Source of the DNA: a virus
Length of the DNA: 10,234 bases
IMG/VR virus record: IMGVR_UViG_3300035696_001163
Reading direction: 5' to 3' (one strand)
Shown here: positions 111 to 10,234 of the stretch, one piece after another
How positions within the stretch are numbered: position 1 is the stretch's first letter
Layout of the letters: every line of letters begins with the position of its first letter
Notes under the pieces: model-generated
The model's input: only the letters and a program-made list of their open reading frames with translations
Told to the model about the DNA's origin: nothing
Database searches by the model: none
Program-made: the position numbers and the translations under genes

Positions 111-445
111 TTACCACCGCTCCGGCCAGTCGTGCAGGTTCTCTACCGCCTTGACCACCGCCAGCATGTTGCAATCGTAAAATCCCGATGAATTCAGGCA
201 GTTGACCTCGATGATCTTGTATTCCCCGGCGTCCGTCAACCCCACGTCCATCACAAATGCCTCGCACCCGACGCCGGATGGATGATCCGGACGCCGTTCT
301 GCTTGGCGTTGCGGTGTTGCCCGCCATTGCCGCCCGTGCAGAACGTCTGCACCACAAAGTCGCTTTTCGTCAACGAAAACAACAGCCTGCGCTCTTTCAT
401 AACCTGACCGACTTCCAAAACCTTTTGTATGCGCGTCGAATCCAA
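111..445 (-). pseudogene. ATP-grasp-like remnant split across two reading frames. The assignment is tentative.
   Basis: ORF 251..445 reads ..FSLTKSDFVVQTFCTGGNGGQHRNAKQNGVRIIHPASG. It ends at a TGA (253..251) that overlaps a GTG-ATG in the other frame. That second frame continues as MDVGLTDAGEYKIIEVNCLNSSGFYDCNMLAVVKAVENLHDWPERW, ending at 111. The vvQ.f and IEVN..SGF motifs resemble ATP-grasp C-terminal strands, but the expected roughly 60-80 residues between them are missing. The track's longer 111..536 ORF has a junk-like, GC-rich N-terminal part that overlaps the plus-strand paralog gene. Confidence 0.3.
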
Positions 446-632
446 ATGGACCTGTTACGAGGCTGCCGACGACGGCGGCACCACTTGCGAGCGCTTTGCC
501 CGGCTCTCGTGCGGTTGCTCTGTGCCCTTGGTCCAAGACCTAGAAATGGAGCCCGACCTGCCCTGCCCGCTGCACGAAGAGTCCCGCTTCATGGGGCATC
601 CGCCCGCCGTGGGCGAGACCCAACTCTACTGA
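429..632 (+). CDS. Small Cys-rich protein of 67 aa. It is paralog A of a tandem pair sharing a ..LSC.C..P...(14-15)..CPLHEESR.G motif.
   Basis: The ATG at 429 is the first start codon after an in-frame stop at 405-407. The protein motif is conserved with the adjacent ORF while the DNA diverges at synonymous third positions, including a TCC versus AGC serine codon switch. No Shine-Dalgarno sequence is visible. Confidence 0.55.
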   Translation: MRVESKWTCYEAADDGGTTCERFARLSCGCSVPLVQDLEMEPDLPCPLHEESRFMGHPPAVGETQLY

Positions 633-633
633 C

Positions 634-834
634 ATGAGAATCGTCCACATATTCTCGCACATCGAAGACGGCGTGCCCATGCTGTTCGCCCAGCTTTCCT
701 GCGCCTGCGTCTACCCCATCACTTCCGCGATGGTCTTCGACTGCGAAGAGACCGCATGCCCCCTCCACGAGGAGAGCCGTTACACTGGCGTGGCACCAGT
801 CCCCCCGGAGCCCGGCCCCTGCGAGGGCGTGTAA
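634..834 (+). CDS. Small Cys-rich protein of 66 aa. It is paralog B of the tandem pair (FAQLSCAC....CPLHEESRYTG).
   Basis: It starts 1 nt after the stop of paralog A. The motif is conserved with synonymous DNA divergence. No clear Shine-Dalgarno sequence; an alternative internal start lies at M16 (679). Confidence 0.5.
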   Translation: MRIVHIFSHIEDGVPMLFAQLSCACVYPITSAMVFDCEETACPLHEESRYTGVAPVPPEPGPCEGV

Positions 835-1013: not shown

Positions 1014-1089
1014 TGGCAGGGGCGGAGAGATTCGAACTCTCAACTTCGGTTTTGGAGACCGCTAGTTTACCAGTTTAGCCTACGCCCCT
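1014..1089 (-). tRNA. tRNA-Trp (anticodon CCA) with CCA encoded.
   Basis: Its reverse complement reads AGGGGCG TA ... CGGT CTCCAAA ACCG ... GAGAG TTCGAAT CTCTC CGCCCCT G CCA. This is close to E. coli tRNA-Trp in its acceptor stem, anticodon loop and T-arm. The D-arm pairing is looser than usual. Confidence 0.85.
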
Positions 1090-1686
1090 AATGTCCACAA
1101 TACCCGCATGAATCTCGTCATGGCAATTGCCGCAAACGAGGACACACTTGTCTAACTCCGCCCTTAACTTTTCCCAAGATCGCGTGCTCCCAGCCCCGCT
1201 AATCGCGAACTCCTTAGTCGCCGGGTCAACGTGGTGAAACTTGAGTGCTCGGATGCACCTGTTATAGCCGCAAATTTGACACTTCCCGCCTTTGTAGTCA
1301 ACCGCTTTTTGCTTCTGCTGTTGACGCCAGTACACGATACGTGTCACATCTTTTTTCGCAGCCGCTTGTTTTCGTCTTAAAGCGTCCGCAGCCTTGCACT
1401 TGATTGAACACCACTTGCGCCCTATCTTGACCGGAGTACCGCATTCATCACATTCGCCTTCCGGCCTTCGCTTTGGATACAGCCGATTGTTGTGCGCGGC
1501 TGCGCATCCGTGGCTACAAAATCGTCTCCGTCTGACAGTGCCGGGCTTTTCAGCCTCTTTCGGTAATATCGCTTTGCCGCAATGCCTACAGCGTGCTGGG
1601 TTCAACAAATACGCAGCGACCGCCGCTTCGTGTTCCTGTTTGCCCTTGATTAAGGCCGCCGCTTGTTTCTTGGGGTAGCGAATCAT
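1075..1686 (-). CDS. HNH homing endonuclease of 203 aa, with N-terminal CxxC zinc-finger-like modules.
   Basis: ATG at 1686. The C-terminus carries a classic HNH motif, CQICGY..LKFHHVDP..N..LVCGNCHDEIH. The last 15 nt including the TAA stop lie inside the 5' part of tRNA-Trp. The conserved 11-mer starts 5 nt upstream of the ATG. Confidence 0.8.
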   Translation of the reverse strand: MIRYPKKQAAALIKGKQEHEAAVAAYLLNPARCRHCGKAILPKEAEKPGTVRRRRFCSHGCAAAHNNRLYPKRRPEGECDECGTPVKIGRKWCSIKCKAADALRRKQAAAKKDVTRIVYWRQQQKQKAVDYKGGKCQICGYNRCIRALKFHHVDPATKEFAISGAGSTRSWEKLRAELDKCVLVCGNCHDEIHAGIVDIRGVG

Positions 1687-1691
1687 GTAGG

Positions 1692-1702
1692 TTTAATACT
1701 GC
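1692..1702 (-). promoter_or_regulatory. Conserved 11-mer GCAGTATTAAA (minus sense) 5 nt upstream of the HNH 1075..1686 ATG. An identical second copy lies at 2547..2557 upstream of HNH 2095..2541.
   Basis: There is an exact 11/11 match at equivalent positions: tRNA 3' end, then about 25-30 nt, then the motif, then 5 nt, then ATG. The two HNH proteins are otherwise unrelated at their N-termini. The AT-rich TATTAAA core looks like a phage -10 box. Confidence 0.45.
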
Positions 1703-1727
1703 AAAACCCAGAAACACTACCCCTTAA

Positions 1728-1817
1728 TGGCTGTGGGGGCAGGACTCGAACCTGCGACGGAGGTTACCCTCTCCCGATTAACAGTCAGGCCCCTGCTACC
1801 AACTCGGGTACCCCACA
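1728..1817 (-). tRNA. 90-nt type-II tRNA with a long variable arm. The scaffold is Tyr-like but the anticodon is GUU (Asn) and the discriminator is G73. CCA is encoded.
   Basis: Its reverse complement reads TGTGGGG TA CCC GAGTTGGTAGCA GGG G CCTGA CTGTTAA TCGGG AGAGGGTAACCTCCGTC GCAGG TTCGAGT CCTGC CCCCACA G CCA. Every stem pairs. The acceptor stem, the CCCGAG D-arm and the 3' CCCCCAC resemble bacterial tRNA-Tyr, but loop position 36 is U, which gives GUU. Confidence 0.75.
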
Positions 1818-1822
1818 AAAAT

Positions 1823-1897
1823 TGGCTGTGATCCTAGGATTCGAACCTAGACCTCCGATCTTAACAGGATCGCGCTCTGCCGTTAAGCTAGATCACA
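1823..1897 (-). tRNA. Canonical 75-nt tRNA-Asn (anticodon GUU) with CCA encoded.
   Basis: Its reverse complement reads TGTGATC TA GCTT AACGGCA GAGC G CGATC CTGTTAA GATCG GAGGT CTAGG TTCGAAT CCTAG GATCACA G CCA. It is a perfect cloverleaf. Confidence 0.9.
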
Positions 1898-2087
1898 ATT
1901 TCGTAAATCCCGCCTTGCAAAAGCCGCAATCGCAGCCCGGCACGTGCACGGTGGAACCCCGCTTCTCGGCCGCCCGCGCCCTCTCCGGGCAAACGCCGGG
2001 GTAGCCTTCCCACCTGTCGCAAGCCTTGCCAATTGGCTTGCCGCATTTCGGACACGGTATCGCAACGAGTTGATCTATCGTCATCAT
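1893..2087 (-). CDS. Possible small zinc-ribbon protein of 64 aa, MMTIDQLVAIPCPKCGKPIGKAC...CDCGFCKAGFTKL.
   Basis: ATG at 2087 lies 7 nt downstream of the stop of HNH gene 2095..2541. CxxC...CxC pairs are present. Its 3' end overlaps tRNA-Asn by 5 nt. The longer track ORF 1893..2324 overlaps the HNH gene and its upstream part is probably not coding. Confidence 0.35.
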   Translation of the reverse strand: MMTIDQLVAIPCPKCGKPIGKACDRWEGYPGVCPERARAAEKRGSTVHVPGCDCGFCKAGFTKL

Positions 2088-2094
2088 AATCTTT

Positions 2095-2541
2095 TCACTT
2101 GCGCTTTTTGAACCCCCAAGTGTCAGTCTGTGTATGGCAATTGGGGCAAACTTTCCACAAGTTCTCTCGACGATTATCCCGCCTATTTCCGTTCCTATGG
2201 TCGATTTGGAACCTAAGCGGTTTGCCATTCCAAATCGGGCCTTGTCCACAAGCTTCACAACGATTTTCAGTTCGGTCATAGTAACGGCGTTTCGCCACAG
2301 TTGTATGCGGCGAACCAAGCGCAAAAACCTGTTCTTCAGGCAACGAAAGCAGCAGTCCAGAGGCGGCGCAACCCAGAAAATGTTCCGTGTTCAATTCCAG
2401 TTTAGCGACCCACCGTTGAACCTGTCCGCTAGTTCGTACGTTGAGCTTACGACAAACTTCCGACCAAGAAAATGAAGTTCGTACAACTTCCGGTAACTCG
2501 GTCAAGTTCCACTTTCTCGGCTTGTGGAGGCCCTTACCCAT
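2095..2541 (-). CDS. HNH homing endonuclease of 148 aa.
   Basis: ATG at 2541. The HNH motif is CEACG..RFQIDHRNGNRRDNRRENLWKVCPNCH. The same 11-mer GCAGTATTAAA lies 5 nt upstream of the ATG. Within the cluster the gene sits directly downstream of a tRNA 3' end, as does HNH 1075..1686. Confidence 0.8.
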   Translation of the reverse strand: MGKGLHKPRKWNLTELPEVVRTSFSWSEVCRKLNVRTSGQVQRWVAKLELNTEHFLGCAASGLLLSLPEEQVFALGSPHTTVAKRRYYDRTENRCEACGQGPIWNGKPLRFQIDHRNGNRRDNRRENLWKVCPNCHTQTDTWGFKKRK

Positions 2542-2589
2542 GCCTATTTAATACTGCTTCCGCACACAAAACAGGCGTTTTACTATTTA

Positions 2590-2675
2590 TGGCTGGGAAG
2601 GAGAGACTTGAACTCTCAATGAGCCGAAGCTCGACGGGGTCAGAGCCCGTTGGGGTTACATTTTCCTACTTCCCA
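2590..2675 (-). tRNA. 86-nt tRNA-like gene of type-II architecture. Anticodon CUG (Gln), discriminator G73, CCA encoded, D-stem almost unpaired. Function is uncertain.
   Basis: Its reverse complement reads TGGGAAG TA GGAAAATGTAACCCC A ACGGG CTCTGAC CCCGT CGAGCTTCGGCTCATT GAGAG TTCAAGT CTCTC CTTCCCA G CCA. The acceptor stem, anticodon stem, T-arm and a 4-5 bp variable stem closed by a TTCG tetraloop are all good. The D-arm offers only 2-3 possible pairs. Confidence 0.5.
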
Positions 2676-2678
2676 AAC

Positions 2679-2756
2679 TGGCACCCACGGCAGGGTTCGA
2701 ACCTGCGACCTCCTGATTCGTAGTCAGGCGCTCTGGTTCCGCTGAGCTACGCGGGC
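2679..2756 (-). tRNA. 78-nt tRNA-Arg (anticodon ACG) with CCA encoded.
   Basis: Its reverse complement reads GCCCGCG TA GCTC AGCGGAACCA GAGC G CCTGA CTACGAA TCAGG AGGTC GCAGG TTCGAAC CCTGC CGTGGGT G CCA. The acceptor stem includes two G.U pairs. Confidence 0.85.
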
Positions 2757-2766
2757 GTAAAATTTA

Positions 2767-2844
2767 TGGCGACCCCGGTGGGATTCGAACCCACGACCTC
2801 TGGTTCCGGAGACCAGCGCTCTAATTCCGCTGAGCTACGGGGTC
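2767..2844 (-). tRNA. 78-nt tRNA-Arg (anticodon CCG) with CCA encoded.
   Basis: Its reverse complement reads GACCCCG TA GCTC AGCGGAATTA GAGC G CTGGT CTCCGGA ACCAG AGGTC GTGGG TTCGAAT CCCAC CGGGGTC G CCA. The anticodon loop matches that of E. coli Arg-CCG. Confidence 0.9.
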
Positions 2845-2857
2845 CCTACACAAAACT

Positions 2858-2934
2858 TGGGGTGAGGGAGGGGACTCGAACCCCCAACTACAGGAGCCAC
2901 AATCCTGCGTTCTACCAATTGAACTACCCTCACC
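2858..2934 (-). tRNA. tRNA-His (anticodon GUG) with a genome-encoded G-1 paired to C73. CCA is encoded.
   Basis: Its reverse complement reads G GTGAGGG TA GTTC AATTGGTA GAAC G CAGGA TTGTGGC TCCTG TAGTT GGGGG TTCGAGT CCCCT CCCTCAC C CCA. The extra 5' G opposite C73 is the hallmark of His. Confidence 0.9.
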
Positions 2935-3318: not shown

Positions 3319-3501
3319 CTAAAATTCTATCCTGTGCCCCATCTCCGTCCAGAATGCCAGTGCATTTGGCAGGCAGGCGTTGCATACCCAAATGTACTTC
3401 TCGGTGATATCTCCGTCATCCCCATATCGTATCCACACCTGCCGGTTGGCAGTATTTTGGCATTGAAACTTGCTGTCAGGGTAGAACCAGCATTGGTGCA
3501 T
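3319..3501 (-). CDS. Hypothetical small protein of 60 aa with CxxC-like cysteine pairs.
   Basis: ATG at 3501 lies 7 nt after the stop of the upstream gene. It is the last ORF before the terminator. The Shine-Dalgarno sequence is weak. Confidence 0.4.
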   Translation of the reverse strand: MHQCWFYPDSKFQCQNTANRQVWIRYGDDGDITEKYIWVCNACLPNALAFWTEMGHRIEF

Positions 3502-3928: not shown

Positions 3929-4385
3929 AGTTGCGGTACACGCGGTACATAAACTCCGGAGGACCTAGCTGTTGCTCGTGCCATGCGCCTAAGATTATCA
4001 TAGCATAAGGATGCTTCAGGTAATAATCCCGGCTCCACTTCATGGACTTCACGTCGTCCTGAATGGGTACGGGAGAAGACCCGTTCAATCGCCAAAGCCC
4101 CGTAAAACTATGCCATTTCCATTTTCTTTCCGGCGCTTTCGACGGCCTCCAGTACATCGCTATCGTTCCTTCGTGGATGAAGAATCTTTCCACGAGAGGA
4201 TGCGTTTGCTGAAACTTGGCAGTAGCCGATTTCTTGTCCGTCGCATCTATGCGTTCCCACACCGTCTTCTCGGCATCCGATAACCATGAAGCGAAGTACG
4301 GGAACACATCACCGTCCAGCGAATAATCGCCTGTTGACTTGGCTTTGCCCTTGCCCACTATTCTTGCTCCATTCTGTGCAACCAA
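3903..4385 (-). CDS. Hypothetical W-rich protein of 160 aa.
   Basis: It is a long ORF with typical operon overlap at both ends and a composition consistent with coding. Confidence 0.6.
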   Translation of the reverse strand: MVAQNGARIVGKGKAKSTGDYSLDGDVFPYFASWLSDAEKTVWERIDATDKKSATAKFQQTHPLVERFFIHEGTIAMYWRPSKAPERKWKWHSFTGLWRLNGSSPVPIQDDVKSMKWSRDYYLKHPYAMIILGAWHEQQLGPPEFMYRVYRNFAEIIDEV

Positions 4386-4648
4386 ATACGGAACTGCGTC
4401 CAGCGCAGGAGTTCTCGGTTAGTGATTGGACGTGGCCCCTCGTCGCCGATGACATGCAAATGCCCATTTTCCTTAATGACACACAAGTTGTCCGGCTCCG
4501 GAATGTACCAACACTCCGCGCATCCACTGTGCGGGCCTTCGTATCCCACGCTATTCATCCCTCGCACTCCACTGTCCCGTTTTGCTTCTTTCTTTCCAGC
4601 TTCCATCCGGGTAGAAAAACCGGGCAATGTCGCAGCAGACGTAAGCAT
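4358..4648 (-). CDS. Hypothetical protein. The probable true start is ATG 4558, giving about 66 aa (MNSVGYEGPHSGCAECW...).
   Basis: The upstream 4558..4648 part of the track ORF overlaps gene 4551..4751 in another frame. ATG 4558 overlaps that gene's TAG stop by 8 nt in an ATGAATAG junction. Confidence 0.45.
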   Translation of the reverse strand: MLTSAATLPGFSTRMEAGKKEAKRDSGVRGMNSVGYEGPHSGCAECWYIPEPDNLCVIKENGHLHVIGDEGPRPITNRELLRWTQFRIWLHRMEQE

Positions 4649-4751
4649 CCTCGCCGCTGATTTGAATTGTGACTAATTCTCCGTCCATGTCGTTATGGCA
4701 GCATGGGCAGCAATTAACCCCGGTGTACTCATAATCCTTGCAGGTCTTCAT
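4551..4751 (-). CDS. Small Cys-rich protein of 66 aa, containing CCPCCH...CC.
   Basis: ATG at 4751 forms an ATGA overlap with the stop of upstream gene 4748..5110. Confidence 0.5.
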   Translation of the reverse strand: MKTCKDYEYTGVNCCPCCHNDMDGELVTIQISGEDAYVCCDIARFFYPDGSWKERSKTGQWSARDE

Positions 4752-5114: not shown

Positions 5115-5483
5115 TTAAATCCTCATCATTTCTGCACATTTTCTGGCGTTGTAATCTTCCCGCTGTTTGCGGGACTCTTCTTCGAACGGCCGCAACAAAT
5201 CGTCCACCACTTCTTGCTTCCCCCGGAGCCGCTGAATCTGGGAGTCTAGTTCTCGTAGCTTTTTCTCGTTATCGTGGTCATCGGTGATTCCTCCGGAAAA
5301 GCCGCAATTGAGGCTGCACTCTTCTTTGTGCAACCTATGCATCTGTTCCGTCAAGGTCGAACGTAGCCCCAATAGCGTTGGAAGAATACGGGCTAGAAGC
5401 GCATTCGAAGGCACGTATTTGAACTGGTCGCTCATTGGTAGATCACCTGTCCGAAAGGTCTTTTCCGCACCCACTTGATCCAC
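5115..5483 (-). CDS. Hypothetical protein. The likely start is ATG 5435, giving 106 aa (MSDQFKYVPSN...).
   Basis: ATG 5435..5433 forms an ATGA overlap with the TGA stop of the upstream HNH gene. The track start at 5483 would overlap the HNH gene by 52 nt. Confidence 0.55.
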   Translation of the reverse strand: MDQVGAEKTFRTGDLPMSDQFKYVPSNALLARILPTLLGLRSTLTEQMHRLHKEECSLNCGFSGGITDDHDNEKKLRELDSQIQRLRGKQEVVDDLLRPFEEESRKQREDYNARKCAEMMRI

Positions 5484-5761
5484 TTTTGGACCTCGGGGTG
5501 CGCTTTCAGCTTCTCTATCGTATTATACTCCTGTTCCAACTCCTTCTCGGTGAAAAGTGAGTGCAACTGGCTATGGCATGGGCGACAGGTATCAGCTTGC
5601 TTGTGCCGTTCATTCCCTAAGTCTCGTTTGATGCGCTTGTTGTGCCGCATGCGGGGCACGAGATGGTGTCCGGTGAGCGCCATATTCCCTCGCTCGCAAA
5701 GCTCACATGTGCCAATGACGGAATTAGCTGGTACTTTCATCCGTGGATTCCCATTCCACAT
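5432..5761 (-). CDS. Small HNH endonuclease of 109 aa.
   Basis: ATG at 5761. The HNH motif is CELCE...LTGHHLVPR...N...CRPCHSQLH. Confidence 0.75.
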   Translation of the reverse strand: MWNGNPRMKVPANSVIGTCELCERGNMALTGHHLVPRMRHNKRIKRDLGNERHKQADTCRPCHSQLHSLFTEKELEQEYNTIEKLKAHPEVQKWIKWVRKRPFGQVIYQ

Positions 5762-5999
5762 CTACGGGTAGACCGGGAGCAAGACGGTCTGCATTTGAGC
5801 AAGCCTCAACTCCGTTCATTAAAATATCGTAATGTTCGGCACAAACGTAAAGATGCCTTCCGTCCGTTAGAGTAATAAAATCAATAGCGGGGCGACCACA
5901 GGTTTCCTCCGTTGGAGCGGCGAACGTAATCGGGAAACCGCGACAAGAGTCGAGCACTTCGCATTCATGCCTCATAAAAAGGCCCAGTACTCGTCCCAA
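5724..5999 (-). CDS. Small Cys protein. It is paralog 2 of a tandem pair sharing a CG.PA.DFI...LY.CA.H.D motif. The likely start is ATG 5975, giving 83 aa.
   Basis: ATG 5975..5973 forms an ATGA overlap with the upstream paralog's stop. The motif MR..C..L...AP..E..CG.PAIDFI...LYVCAEHYD is shared with gene 5972..6157. Confidence 0.55.
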   Translation of the reverse strand: MGRVLGLFMRHECEVLDSCRGFPITFAAPTEETCGRPAIDFITLTDGRHLYVCAEHYDILMNGVEACSNADRLAPGLPVDVEWESTDESTS

Positions 6000-6157
6000 T
6001 GCTTGGCGCAGAGGTAGATTTTGTCCGTATCCCCGTTTTTACGCACCCATGGTATAAAGTCCACGGCGGGAAGTCCACACAAGGAGTCTTCGTCAGCTTC
6101 CGGGGCAAGCATACACCCCGCTGTAAAGTCCCTTAACGCCATACAGGTACCTCTCAT
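5972..6157 (-). CDS. Small Cys protein of 61 aa. It is paralog 1 of the tandem pair (..CGLPAVDFI...IYLCAKHWDEY).
   Basis: ATG 6157 forms an ATGA overlap with the stop of the nucleotidyltransferase gene. Paralogy is visible at protein level. Confidence 0.55.
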   Translation of the reverse strand: MRGTCMALRDFTAGCMLAPEADEDSLCGLPAVDFIPWVRKNGDTDKIYLCAKHWDEYWAFL

Positions 6158-7107
6158 GACTGCCAGTGCTCCGTATACGCAGCCGCGACTAGCTGGGATA
6201 TCGCAGACCTGTCTGGGCGTTCGGGCAGCTTAGAAGCCAACCGGGCGCTTTCTAGCAGGGCAAAGCGTTCCCTCGCTATACGCTCAATCTCAGCAAGCGG
6301 TTGGACCTTACCCAATCGAATATCAATCAGGAAGTCCTTTTCCGGACGTGGGAGCGTGATTCGGCCTTCCTGCATCAGCTCAATACCCTCGCCAAGCACC
6401 CTGATCAAATGCATCGCCGCTTTGGTGTCGTAACCATGTTCGTGAATCAGGTCCCAGCGCTGCCCTCGCTTGCCTACGCCTTCGCCTTTGAGTGTACGGA
6501 GCATGTGCTCCGAAAACTTCAGATAATGGTACCCGGCGTGACTACACAGGAATACGTGTCGGTGGGCGTGAACAAATCTTTGCCACGAATCGGGGTGAAG
6601 TGCCATGTTTGGGGCAAACAAATAGTGCATGGCATCGGGGTTGCCCGTGCACACCATCCCCGCCCACTTGCGCAGGGAGTACAGTGTCAGGTCAATGTCA
6701 TCAGGCCCGTTGCGTCGGTCATTTCCCGCCGTGCTCCATTTGAAAAGTTCCGGCTGTCTGGCACGCTCCTGACCGTTAGGCAGGGTGTCGTACTCGGTAA
6801 CGCCAAGTGCCGCGTGCGGAGGCGGGATGTAGATGCCGAACAGGTCGAGGTCTTCTTTCCCGTCCAGCGAGGCACCGTGAGCGCCGGAGCCGCCAATGAA
6901 CAAGTGAATGATTTCATCGGCCCACGTAAAGCCGGTCTGCTTGATGGCTGCGTAAATCGCGTTTACGTCGGTTGTTTTAACAATCTCCATAAATTCCACA
7001 ACGACAGAACCAGAAAGACACCTGTCATGAAGGTGTAGTCTATCCGGTGTAGCGTGTATATATTCACCCAAAGATAGATAGCGTTCCCCGCAACACTGAG
7101 TCCCCAC
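6154..7107 (-). CDS. Pol-beta-fold nucleotidyltransferase. The family is unresolved among MNT, AbiEii and CD-NTase-like groups. The likely start is ATG 6990, giving about 278 aa.
   Basis: The sequence IGGSGAHGASLDGKEDLDLFGIY matches hG[GS]-x9-13-Dh[DE]h, and a later DDIDLTLY strand supplies a third carboxylate. Roughly 180 aa follow the nucleotidyltransferase core. The track start GTG 7107 overlaps the membrane-protein gene by 145 nt. Confidence 0.65.
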   Translation of the reverse strand: MGTQCCGERYLSLGEYIHATPDRLHLHDRCLSGSVVVEFMEIVKTTDVNAIYAAIKQTGFTWADEIIHLFIGGSGAHGASLDGKEDLDLFGIYIPPPHAALGVTEYDTLPNGQERARQPELFKWSTAGNDRRNGPDDIDLTLYSLRKWAGMVCTGNPDAMHYLFAPNMALHPDSWQRFVHAHRHVFLCSHAGYHYLKFSEHMLRTLKGEGVGKRGQRWDLIHEHGYDTKAAMHLIRVLGEGIELMQEGRITLPRPEKDFLIDIRLGKVQPLAEIERIARERFALLESARLASKLPERPDRSAISQLVAAAYTEHWQS

Positions 7108-8132: not shown

Positions 8133-8676
8133 ACGCCGCCTCCGCCTTTTCGATTTCCGGCTGCTTCCAAAACAGCAAGAACATCTGCGTGCTGTTCCCT
8201 TTCTCAGTGTTACAAGTCATGCACATTGTGCACAGGTTGGATAAATCGTTACCGCCGCCTTTGGACTTGGGAAGCACGTGATCCTTCGTCAGCATGACCT
8301 CTTTGCCGTTTTGAAGCCCGTACAGGTTGAAGTGCCATGTCCTCCCCGTGCCCCTGAATGATGTTTCAAACTTGCCGCCCTTTAACTGCTTCCGAACTTT
8401 CTTGGCTGAACGCTCCTTGGCAAAGTACATTCCGGTGATTCCACACCGGACGCATACTAGGGATTCGCGGAACACCTGATACCTATCGGATGTGATTTTG
8501 ATGAAGTCGCCGTCGAATTCAGCCCACGAATTACCGATCTGCGTGAATACCTCATCCAGAGTATAAATGCCGTTACGTTCATAGCCCGGGTGGAAGCCCC
8601 GGACAAGAACACCTTGAGGGACCTGATCGTCAGGGATCATACCCGTATTAGATGCCGTGGAAAAGAAAAAGGCCAC
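8122..8676 (-). CDS. HNH endonuclease of the DH..N..N type.
   Basis: The motif is CVRCG...HFNLYG...LTKDHVLPKSKGGGNDLSNLCTMCMTCNTEKG. The track start is GTG 8676. An alternative ATG lies at 8640. Confidence 0.75.
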   Translation of the reverse strand: MAFFFSTASNTGMIPDDQVPQGVLVRGFHPGYERNGIYTLDEVFTQIGNSWAEFDGDFIKITSDRYQVFRESLVCVRCGITGMYFAKERSAKKVRKQLKGGKFETSFRGTGRTWHFNLYGLQNGKEVMLTKDHVLPKSKGGGNDLSNLCTMCMTCNTEKGNSTQMFLLFWKQPEIEKAEAAYAG

Positions 8677-8721
8677 TCTTTTTCAAGAGCAGCCTCTTTC
8701 CCGGTCGGTGGTACAACCCCT

Positions 8722-10234
8722 TTAGTTACCTACTTTTGCGGGCTTCGCTTGGATATTGCTCAGGATAGTCTCCAAGGCGGTTCCCTTGAACAACCTTTCC
8801 AGTGAGGTTCCAAGTCCAGTCTGTTCATGCAAAGCGAGCGGGGCAACGGCGGTAGCCAGCTTGGTAGCAAACTCCGTCTGTCCCAGCGTGAGCATGGCGG
8901 CTATGAGGTCAGGCGTAATCGCCTTGATCTTCGCCTCGAAGAACTCGACACGCTTCTCCTCGACTGTCAACGTGTAGTCTTCGCCAGCCTTACGACGGTT
9001 TAGCTCGGCTGTGGCAACTGCATCATGCAGCTTTTGCTGGTCGGCTTCGGCCGTCAAGCTGCTGACCGTTTCGGCGATCTCCGCTTGCAACTTCTCCATG
9101 GCTACGTCGGCCCGCTTGGCGTTCAGTTCGGCTTCCAGTTCAAGCTTCTTGATTGCCAAGTCGTTCTCCAGTACCGCTGCTTGCTCCTGAACTTCGACTG
9201 TACGCTTGGTAATGTCGAGGTTCTGCTCGGCGGCGGACAGGGAGATAACGCCTTCGACTGCCTTCTGCTGGGCATTCTTGAGCATCGTGGAGATACGTTC
9301 ATCGGCGATCTTGACATCCAATACTTCAACGTCATAGACCTCCATGCCGTTCTCCGGGAACGGATGAGCCCGACGCTTCCCATCCACCTTCGTGCCGAGG
9401 ATAGTGTCACGGACCTGAGCGGTTGAATCCTCGATGAATTCCTTGATCGACAACTTCTTGACCGCACCTTTGAGAAGTGACCGCATGTGGTCGCACAGGA
9501 ATTTAACGTAGTTCTCGACGGAAAACCACTTGTCCTGAGCTTCCCGAAGGAAGTTAACGCGGTAGGACAACTTTATCTCCACGTTCACAAGGTCTTTCGT
9601 TTCGACCCGGACGATGTCGGATACGACGTTGTTGTCTACGCGCAAGTACACGTCGTGAATCAACTTGTCGGTCGTCTTCGGCTTTCCGGTCGAAAGTTCA
9701 AGAACGGCGAGCGTTTCGTCGTACTTCAGCAGGATGGTTGCCGGTCCAACTACTACACGCCGCCCACCCTTTTTGTCAACGATTTGAACGGCGTAGCCGA
9801 CATAAGGACTGATAGTCGGCACCCCATCGTACTTCGTATTCAGGGTAAGCATCGGCGGTGGGGTGAACTGCGTGCCCCGGTTCAGCTTATCGCCTTCGAA
9901 TGACGCACTGGCGGCTAGTGCTCGACTTCCCGCTGTGCCTCGATTAACGGAGCGGAGAACATCCACGGAAGCTGCCTTAACGGTAGCGTCATAGACATAG
10001 TTGTCGGCATCATTTGCCAGTGCCCGAATGCTGTCATTGAATGCCAATGCTTCGGTGTTACCCGGATACCACAGGCTAACAGTCTTGGCATCCAGCACGC
10101 GGCGGATGATGACTTGAAAACGCGGATCGGGCAGGAAAATCTGTGGACCTTCCACGGTCTCCACATCGCCTATGTTCTTGTCGAGAACATAGCGGCCTTC
10201 GCCCGTGGGGATCGCAATTCCGTAGTAGCGCTGG
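8722..10234 (-). CDS. Large SPFH/band-7-like protein with a beta-rich N-terminal region and a long C-terminal coiled coil. The architecture is flotillin-like or vault-shoulder-like. The CDS is 5'-partial.
   Basis: The frame is open through the right edge; the track's M at 10164 is a GTG inside a longer open frame. An SPFH-like core (..VETKDLVNVEIKLSYRVNF..VYDVEVLDVKIADERISTMLKNAQ) is followed by about 150 aa of heptad-like E/A/K/L-rich sequence. TAA at 8724..8722. Confidence 0.7.
   Translation of the reverse strand, partial: QRYYGIAIPTGEGRYVLDKNIGDVETVEGPQIFLPDPRFQVIIRRVLDAKTVSLWYPGNTEALAFNDSIRALANDADNYVYDATVKAASVDVLRSVNRGTAGSRALAASASFEGDKLNRGTQFTPPPMLTLNTKYDGVPTISPYVGYAVQIVDKKGGRRVVVGPATILLKYDETLAVLELSTGKPKTTDKLIHDVYLRVDNNVVSDIVRVETKDLVNVEIKLSYRVNFLREAQDKWFSVENYVKFLCDHMRSLLKGAVKKLSIKEFIEDSTAQVRDTILGTKVDGKRRAHPFPENGMEVYDVEVLDVKIADERISTMLKNAQQKAVEGVISLSAAEQNLDITKRTVEVQEQAAVLENDLAIKKLELEAELNAKRADVAMEKLQAEIAETVSSLTAEADQQKLHDAVATAELNRRKAGEDYTLTVEEKRVEFFEAKIKAITPDLIAAMLTLGQTEFATKLATAVAPLALHEQTGLGTSLERLFKGTALETILSNIQAKPAKVGN

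Follow-up and report, generated by a model that had tools for sequence, protein, structure and literature searches.

The N1 domain of the Clp-family disaggregase ClpG is one of the few understood cellular devices for recognising aggregated protein. In the study that describes it (PMC10641755), N1 is an autonomous, transferable unit that binds Zn2+ through C6, C9, C31 and H34, as shown experimentally, and unfolds without this coordination. The domain binds a hydrophobic and positively charged model peptide. In an AlphaFold2 (AF2) model, which shift perturbations measured by nuclear magnetic resonance (NMR) largely validated, the peptide lies beside the first β-strand of N1 as an added strand, and experiments identified the strand residues V17 and L21 as essential for substrate binding. 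The same study reports the N-terminal domains of ClpE and McsA as homologous to N1, and the relatives reported there are N-terminal parts of Clp ATPases and McsA. Here, we describe two adjacent small genes, A and B, in a 10,234-nucleotide stretch of viral DNA (IMG/VR virus record IMGVR_UViG_3300035696_001163; the window below means this whole stretch). Their products belong to a rare, previously unnamed family of Cys/His proteins that is real, conserved and, judging from profile comparisons, apparently related to ClpG N1. We regard it as an evenly balanced proposition that A and B are zinc-stabilised protein-binding modules, old and diverged copies of one domain that have been diversified for host interaction.

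A family of small Cys/His proteins in large phages

The central genes of the window, A and B among them, all lie on the minus strand. Both open reading frames (ORFs) are present where the initial annotation had placed them, and the ATGA overlap that it described between A and B recurs between the preceding nucleotidyltransferase gene and A. Read on the minus strand, the first of these junctions is ...CAG TCA TGA, with A opening ATG AGA GGT, and the second is ...TTT TTA TGA, with B opening ATG AGG CAT. These overlaps point to translational coupling. That A and B are paralogues was borne out by BLASTP (36% identity over 55 residues, E 2e-8) and by a shuffle test. Their Smith-Waterman score is 78, as against 23.7 +/- 4.4 (maximum 55) for 20,000 shuffles of B, none of which reached 78, also when the Cys and His positions were held fixed. 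Both proteins match the hidden Markov model (HMM) of the wider family, A with E 7e-18 and B with E 1e-20. An independent ENA contig carries the same 1.17 kb with a sole difference, a synonymous one inside B at window position 5847, and encodes an identical B protein. Since the protein sequence is conserved across 112 family sequences and the only difference between the assemblies is synonymous, A and B are coding. The public gene call for A begins at Met6 (56 aa) and drops the first conserved Cys. Because the family-wide MRxxC N-terminus includes Met1, the homologues support Met1, the ATGA start chosen in the initial annotation, as the true start of A.

Word-indexed protein searches with A or B alone returned self-matches only, and the family surfaced through exhaustive profile searching. 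A HMMER profile built from the two sequences of the A and B core gave 43 matches at E <= 1e-3 among 1.84 billion representative proteins, and a second search with a 33-sequence alignment gave 55 clusters. Together with members from fetched loci, these searches yielded the set of 112 distinct sequences. Loci were found through a degenerate DNA pattern for CGKPAVD[FY], many of whose matches were chance ones reaching only E ~1e-4. Family members are free-standing proteins of 42-102 aa, and a few longer forms bear unrelated extensions; in one of these fused members, the C-terminal extension matched no known domain. Two large repeat proteins that ranked high in the profile search (P0003, P0004) and P0011 were excluded as unrelated repeats with a short acidic C-G-x-x-V-x-F stretch. 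No usable match to A or B was found in Pfam, PHROGs or NCBIfam. Across the whole family, no member reached a Pfam threshold, PHROGs gave only weak matches to function-unknown families, and tblastn of the family consensus against cultured phage genomes gave only marginal matches in Microbacterium phages. The family is acidic, with a median isoelectric point (pI) of 5.0; 59 of 79 members fall below 6 and two lie above 8. Further Cys-rich ORFs of the window (3319..3501, 4551..4751 and 429..834) were considered as additional members and did not match the family HMM.

The motif that the initial annotation had recognised between A and B is the signature of the whole family, MRxxC…CGKPAVD[FY]…[WY]LCAEH[WYF]D. 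A lack of conservation in related genomes would have counted against that annotation, and the family is conserved. Among the 112 sequences, Met1 and Cys5 are invariant (100%) and Arg2 is present in 93%. The second Cys (99%) is followed by G, K, P, A and V in 88, 71, 97, 94 and 95%, respectively. The Asp of A-V-D is kept in 81% and replaced by Glu in 13%, with F/Y next in 74% and V/I/L after that in 72%. A W/Y precedes L-C in 83%, the third Cys is present in 100% and the His in 98% (the remainder having Cys); W/Y/F follows the His in 95%, and the final Asp is found in 98%. The first two Cys are spaced C-x4-C in the shortest members; in A and B, some 20 residues are inserted between them. This insert, the tip of the hairpin, and everything past the start of the helix are highly variable.

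Tandem repetition, first noticed in the window pair, proved to be a hallmark of the family. A related 463-kb phage encodes 17 members within 10 kb, on one strand and with many of them overlapping by 4 nt. Tandem pairs occur in five further lineages, and one 102-aa protein (P0026) is a fusion of two family copies. Several members of the 17-copy array (locus L006) are uncalled as genes in the public annotation, for example L006 1641..1844 and 8566..8751. The idea that the window pair is a recent, rapidly diverging duplication did not hold up: A and B share no nucleotide-level similarity, and each copy is closer to members in other phages than to its neighbour. The nearest relatives of A are P0010 and P0006; that of B is P0008, which has the same hairpin, DFITLTDGR. 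As neither copy is the closest relative of the other, the pair is old. Overlapping starts are likewise widespread. An NTGA overlap start is found in 21 of 24 members with MRxxC, and an upstream open frame of 33-322 codons ends at that TGA. The Arg2 codon is AGA or AGG in 20 of 23 cases, compared with 28% AGR in the genes of this window, from which alone the background frequency was taken (binomial p 5e-9).

Predicted fold, likeness to ClpG N1 and a proposed role

The initial annotation suggested a small zinc-binding fold from the spacing of Cys and His. This suggestion agrees with the 98-100% conservation of the C/C/C/H columns and with the equivalent, experimentally shown Zn2+ set of ClpG N1. 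An AF2 model of A, computed with the family alignment as input (predicted local distance difference test, pLDDT, 80.9), contains a β-hairpin (residues 33-38 and 44-49) and a helix (51-60), with the last two putative ligands at the start of the helix. When the family profile was run against 177,635 PDB sequences with hmmsearch, the best match was ClpG/ClpK N1 (8p66_B, E 1.6e-3); the next match had E 0.33. The alignment to 8p66_B is in register across C-G-x-P-A ... L-C-x-x-H-Y, and a profile-profile comparison of the family with N1 by hhalign gave a probability of 90% and E 1.5e-6. N1 has the ligand order Cys-Cys-Cys-His, the last two as C-x-x-H, and C5, C27, C50 and H53 of A match it. V17 of N1 aligns with Ile35 of A, in a column that is V/I/L in 72% of members. 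As a control, the zinc domain of ClpX gave an hhalign probability of 14.6% (with the E. coli ClpX N-terminus), and ClpX chains were absent among the PDB sequence matches at E <= 10. Foldseek searches of PDB and BFVD returned nothing significant. Taken as a comparison of profiles, these results suggest that the family may share the same kind of fold as N1, and we infer that the domain of A and B is zinc-stabilised by its C/C/C/H set.

This likeness lends itself to a concrete model. A and B would be two copies of a free-standing mini-domain of ~45 residues, long diverged and each held together by one zinc ion on Cys5, Cys27, Cys50 and His53 (A numbering). The fold would consist of a Cys knuckle (C-x4-C in the shortest members), a β-hairpin and a helix. 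If N1 is taken as a guide, the edge at which a partner polypeptide docks by β-strand addition is probably the first strand, whose sequence P-A-V-D-[FY]-[VIL] is conserved. Target specificity would differ from copy to copy through three variable regions: the residues inserted between the first two Cys, the tip of the hairpin and the tail at the C-terminus. Large phages multiply and diversify the copies in tandem, in keeping with a set of binders directed against host proteins during take-over, with host protein-quality-control or defence proteins as possible targets. The initial annotation had regarded tandem duplications of this kind as frequent marks of rapidly evolving host-interaction or anti-defence proteins; for A and B, such a role is an inference. 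We favour protein-binding modules over enzymes or DNA binders because the family is acidic, lacks an HNH-like catalytic signature, and has the precedent of N1.

Several observations weigh against this model. For a motif that is short and rich in Cys, a HMMER E-value of 1.6e-3 has no more than moderate significance. The spacing of the first two ligands, C-x4-C at its shortest and C-x21-C in A, departs from the C-x2-C of N1. N1 is also basic and fused to an AAA+ ATPase, whereas the family is acidic and free-standing. On the face equivalent to the binding face of N1, beside the V17 position, the family has a conserved Asp (D 81%, E 13%) where N1 has a hydrophobic residue, Val, so its binding chemistry may differ from that of N1. 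Finally, the strongly conserved CGKPAVD and LCAEH[WY]D surfaces could equally mean that all copies share a single partner, which would be a poorer fit to diversified binders. A bolder version of the model holds that large phages carry a repertoire of ClpG-N1-like mini-domains whose copies either dock different host proteins by strand addition or jointly jam Clp/McsA-type substrate recognition; we consider it unlikely. If true, a chaperone targeting domain would be the basis of a strategy for taking over the host, and no such strategy was found in the literature searches made here.

Gene neighbourhood and alternative roles

Zinc mini-domains often bind nucleic acids, and an unlikely alternative is that A and B are small zinc-finger regulators that do so, either as transcription factors or as RNA-binding helpers of adjoining RNA-repair or nuclease enzymes. 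The setting is suggestive. As the initial annotation had it, the pair follows a nucleotidyltransferase gene (PF10127, phrog_388) and precedes an HNH gene (HlpB type, NF058586; Table 1). RlaP enzymes extend damaged 3' ends of RNA by one or two nucleotides (PMC12776372) and are common among jumbo phages (PMC7824862). In three other lineages, members come after a metallophosphoesterase, and two genes farther downstream lies one for a helix-hairpin-helix protein. In addition, the zinc-ribbon expansion of Bacillus phage G (~35 proteins) has been suggested to comprise transcription factors or DNA-binding proteins (PMC7824862). However, the family is mostly acidic (A and B lie below even its median pI; Table 1), its closest solved relative, N1, binds polypeptides rather than nucleic acid, and HMM scores show no relationship to the phage G family.

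Table 1. Members A and B, their junctions, the flanking genes and the largest tandem array. Window positions unless a locus is named.
Feature	Position	Strand	Details
Member A	5972..6157	minus	61 aa, pI 4.4; conserved Cys5, Cys27, Cys50, His53; insert of 21 residues separates the first two Cys
Member B	5724..5975	minus	83 aa, pI 4.3; shares the core of A in residues 1-50; acidic 30-residue C-terminal tail after the core
ATGA overlap, nucleotidyltransferase/A	6154..6157	minus	nucleotidyltransferase stop TGA and member A start ATG
ATGA overlap, A/B	5972..5975	minus	member A stop TGA and member B start ATG
RlaP-family (Pol-beta superfamily) nucleotidyltransferase	6154..7107	minus	317 aa; PF10127 E 4e-19, phrog_388 E 5e-43
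HlpB-like HNH protein	5432..5761	minus	NF058586 E 3e-23, below the model's curated cutoff, aligned from residue 13
17-copy array	L006 1294..9725 (contig Ga0326728_10000049, 152821-163015)		463-kb phage

A second alternative is a specific form of the protein-binding model, in which the copies act as decoys or modulators of host Clp/McsA-type quality control by mimicking the N-terminal zinc domain that meets the substrate. The only significant solved relative of the family is the domain with which a Clp-family disaggregase targets its substrates, and N-terminal domains homologous to it are reported for ClpE and McsA in PMC10641755. That study also measured how ClpG disaggregates protein when isolated N1 is present. 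An anti-Clp/McsA role is attractive, with homology as its support, but it is unlikely. The similarity is remote, and 17 diverged copies are hard to square with one conserved host target. There is also no evidence for ClpG, ClpE or McsA in the hosts, for which the available clue is that three members lie on contigs binned as Acidobacteriota.

The flanking enzymes suggest yet another role, namely that A and B are dedicated accessory subunits of the RlaP nucleotidyltransferase, the HlpB-like HNH protein or both, kept at a fixed ratio by translational coupling. The ATGA coupling to the nucleotidyltransferase fits this role. So does the 463-kb phage, in which the order nucleotidyltransferase-member-HNH is kept and the enzymes are orthologous to those of the window (E 1e-56 and 2e-29). 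This phage is nonetheless the one other lineage with that order, and in it a gene of 95-101 aa separates the nucleotidyltransferase from the member. The linkage to the nucleotidyltransferase raised by the initial annotation thus recurs in one related phage and is not general. The remaining members follow unrelated genes or stand in arrays of up to 17 copies without such enzymes nearby. For example, members lie three genes downstream of an M24 peptidase, as the last gene ahead of an integrase, or in long runs of small unannotated genes. Because the neighbourhoods are so varied, a dedicated partnership with either enzyme is quite unlikely. Last, that A and B are catalytically dead HNH (His-Me finger) remnants or unexpressed ORFs is very improbable: hhalign gave a probability of 1% when the family was compared with six HNH domains of the window and of related loci; HNH nucleases have a catalytic His where strand 1 ends and a metal-binding Asn/His on the helix, whereas the family has F/Y (74%) at the position of the former and W/Y/F after its C-x-x-H; and the protein sequence is strongly conserved across the 112 sequences, with a lone synonymous difference between assemblies.

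The HNH gene starts at 5761 or 5740, and both starts overlap the end of B. Its public gene call begins at Met27 (83 aa), so that the CxxC belonging to the HNH zinc site is lost. For both the HNH protein and member A, the longer form is backed by homologues, and two public start-codon calls that had removed metal ligands are corrected as a result. Because the 463-kb phage shares other genes of the window too, the window is probably a piece of a large phage related to it. True members also occur on contigs of 163-308 kb from metagenome-assembled genomes binned as Acidobacteriota (L031, L034 and L050, three members). This binning is possibly a host clue, or possibly the result of large phage contigs having been swept into bins.

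Elsewhere, the window holds further unusual genes. A 480-aa protein (8722..10164, minus) matches the major vault protein shoulder (PF11978, E 3.8e-26) and the vault repeat (PF17795, E 2e-9) and has no PHROG match; a vault-like protein is unusual in an apparent large phage. Within ORF 111..536, an ATP-grasp protein of the R2K clade is represented at positions 135..314 (minus) by its final ~58 residues only (PF14243, E 8e-10). The 273-aa ATP-grasp homologue of the 463-kb phage (L061 6150..6971) aligns from residue 211 only, and the window copy looks like a truncated remnant. A plus-strand paralogous pair (429..632 and 634..834, mutual E 2e-9) occupies the place of the missing N-terminal part. 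Seven tRNA genes (Trp, two Asn, Gln, two Arg and His) lie in 1014..2933 (minus), interleaved with HNH genes at 1075..1686 and 2095..2541. Some of these tRNAs are unusually long, with one tRNA-Asn of 90 nt and a tRNA-Gln of 86 nt. In a megablast of the whole window against cultured phages, the sole match was a tRNA-Arg of Synechococcus phage S-CBWM1 (91.5%). A 66-aa Cys-rich protein (4551..4751, minus; CCPCCH...CC) has homologues with E 1e-12 to 1e-14 in four loci, on large phage contigs of 463 kb, 332 kb and 221 kb and on a metagenome contig of 13 kb. This conserved family of small proteins is a separate one, without a Pfam or PHROG match. Finally, 3319..3501 and 4358..4648 (both minus) show weak similarity (E 0.029, CW[FY].P....C...) and may form another paralogous pair, the second of which overlaps its neighbours and may not be real.

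Comparison with known systems

Whatever their function, a set of phage 'hypothetical proteins' can now be named, recognised by a signature and examined in the light of a structural hypothesis that is open to test. If the copies bind host proteins, they would represent a new class of take-over factor as well as a natural, compact scaffold for binders. Otherwise, the outcome is a tidy but modest annotation of a domain family.

Beyond N1, a further point of comparison is DUF7455 (PF24254), an uncharacterised small domain annotated on one protein each of Mycobacterium abscessus and an Arthrobacter phage. Two of 33 family members match it weakly at E <= 0.1 (best E 8.7e-4), as does ClpG N1 itself (E 1.1e-4), and a DUF7455 phage protein is also among the BFVD structure matches. 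The PF24254 gathering score of 27 bits was reached by no member (14.7 bits for P0043), and A and B gave no match at E <= 1. These weak matches suggest that the family, N1 and DUF7455 may form one loose superfamily. Membership of the ClpX N-terminal zinc domain, which has four Cys (C-x2-C ... C-x2-C), is not indicated, in keeping with its weak hhalign score.

Among phage proteins, the best BFVD structural match is a 68-aa protein of Streptomyces phage Annadreamy (template modelling score, TM, 0.64, probability 1.0, E 0.03), which is not significant. The C-terminus of Microbacterium phage Cinna gp15, HTCEIR...LCGKPA...WVCPEHD, carries the family signature. Both proteins are uncharacterised, and their sequence similarity to the family is marginal (tblastn E 0.1). 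In Cinna gp15 (L012 2255..2680), the signature makes up the C-terminal third of a 142-aa protein encoded two genes downstream of a MuF-like minor capsid gene. This placement hints that in some phages the domain may belong to a larger protein whose gene lies in the head-gene region.

The closest parallel to the tandem expansion is found in Bacillus phage G (Iyer et al. 2021, PMC7824862), a jumbo phage in which a small zinc-binding protein has likewise been multiplied, partly as adjoining genes. Unlike the family described here, the phage G zinc ribbons have C4 ligands (CPICG ... CPxGC) and a conserved C-terminal KENDRYL helix. Homology between the two expansions was rejected, as the family HMM scored only -1 to 0.2 bits against gp32, gp34, gp35 and gp37.

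This form of the domain, free-standing and acidic, carried by phages and expanded in tandem, was found neither in the libraries that were searched nor in the literature searches. It differs in several respects from ClpG/ClpK N1 (8P66), ClpE and McsA. The phage proteins stand alone rather than being fused to an ATPase or to McsA, and their first Cys pair ranges from C-x4-C to about C-x25-C, compared with C-x2-C in N1. They have an additional conserved Arg2, the Asp in AVD, and the Asp after H-[WYF], and they are acidic and tandemly multiplied where N1 is basic. The fold type and the zinc site nonetheless have a characterised precedent in N1, and the comparison suggests that large soil phages, too, have a zinc mini-domain of the N1 type, in the shape of an acidic protein family whose members stand alone.
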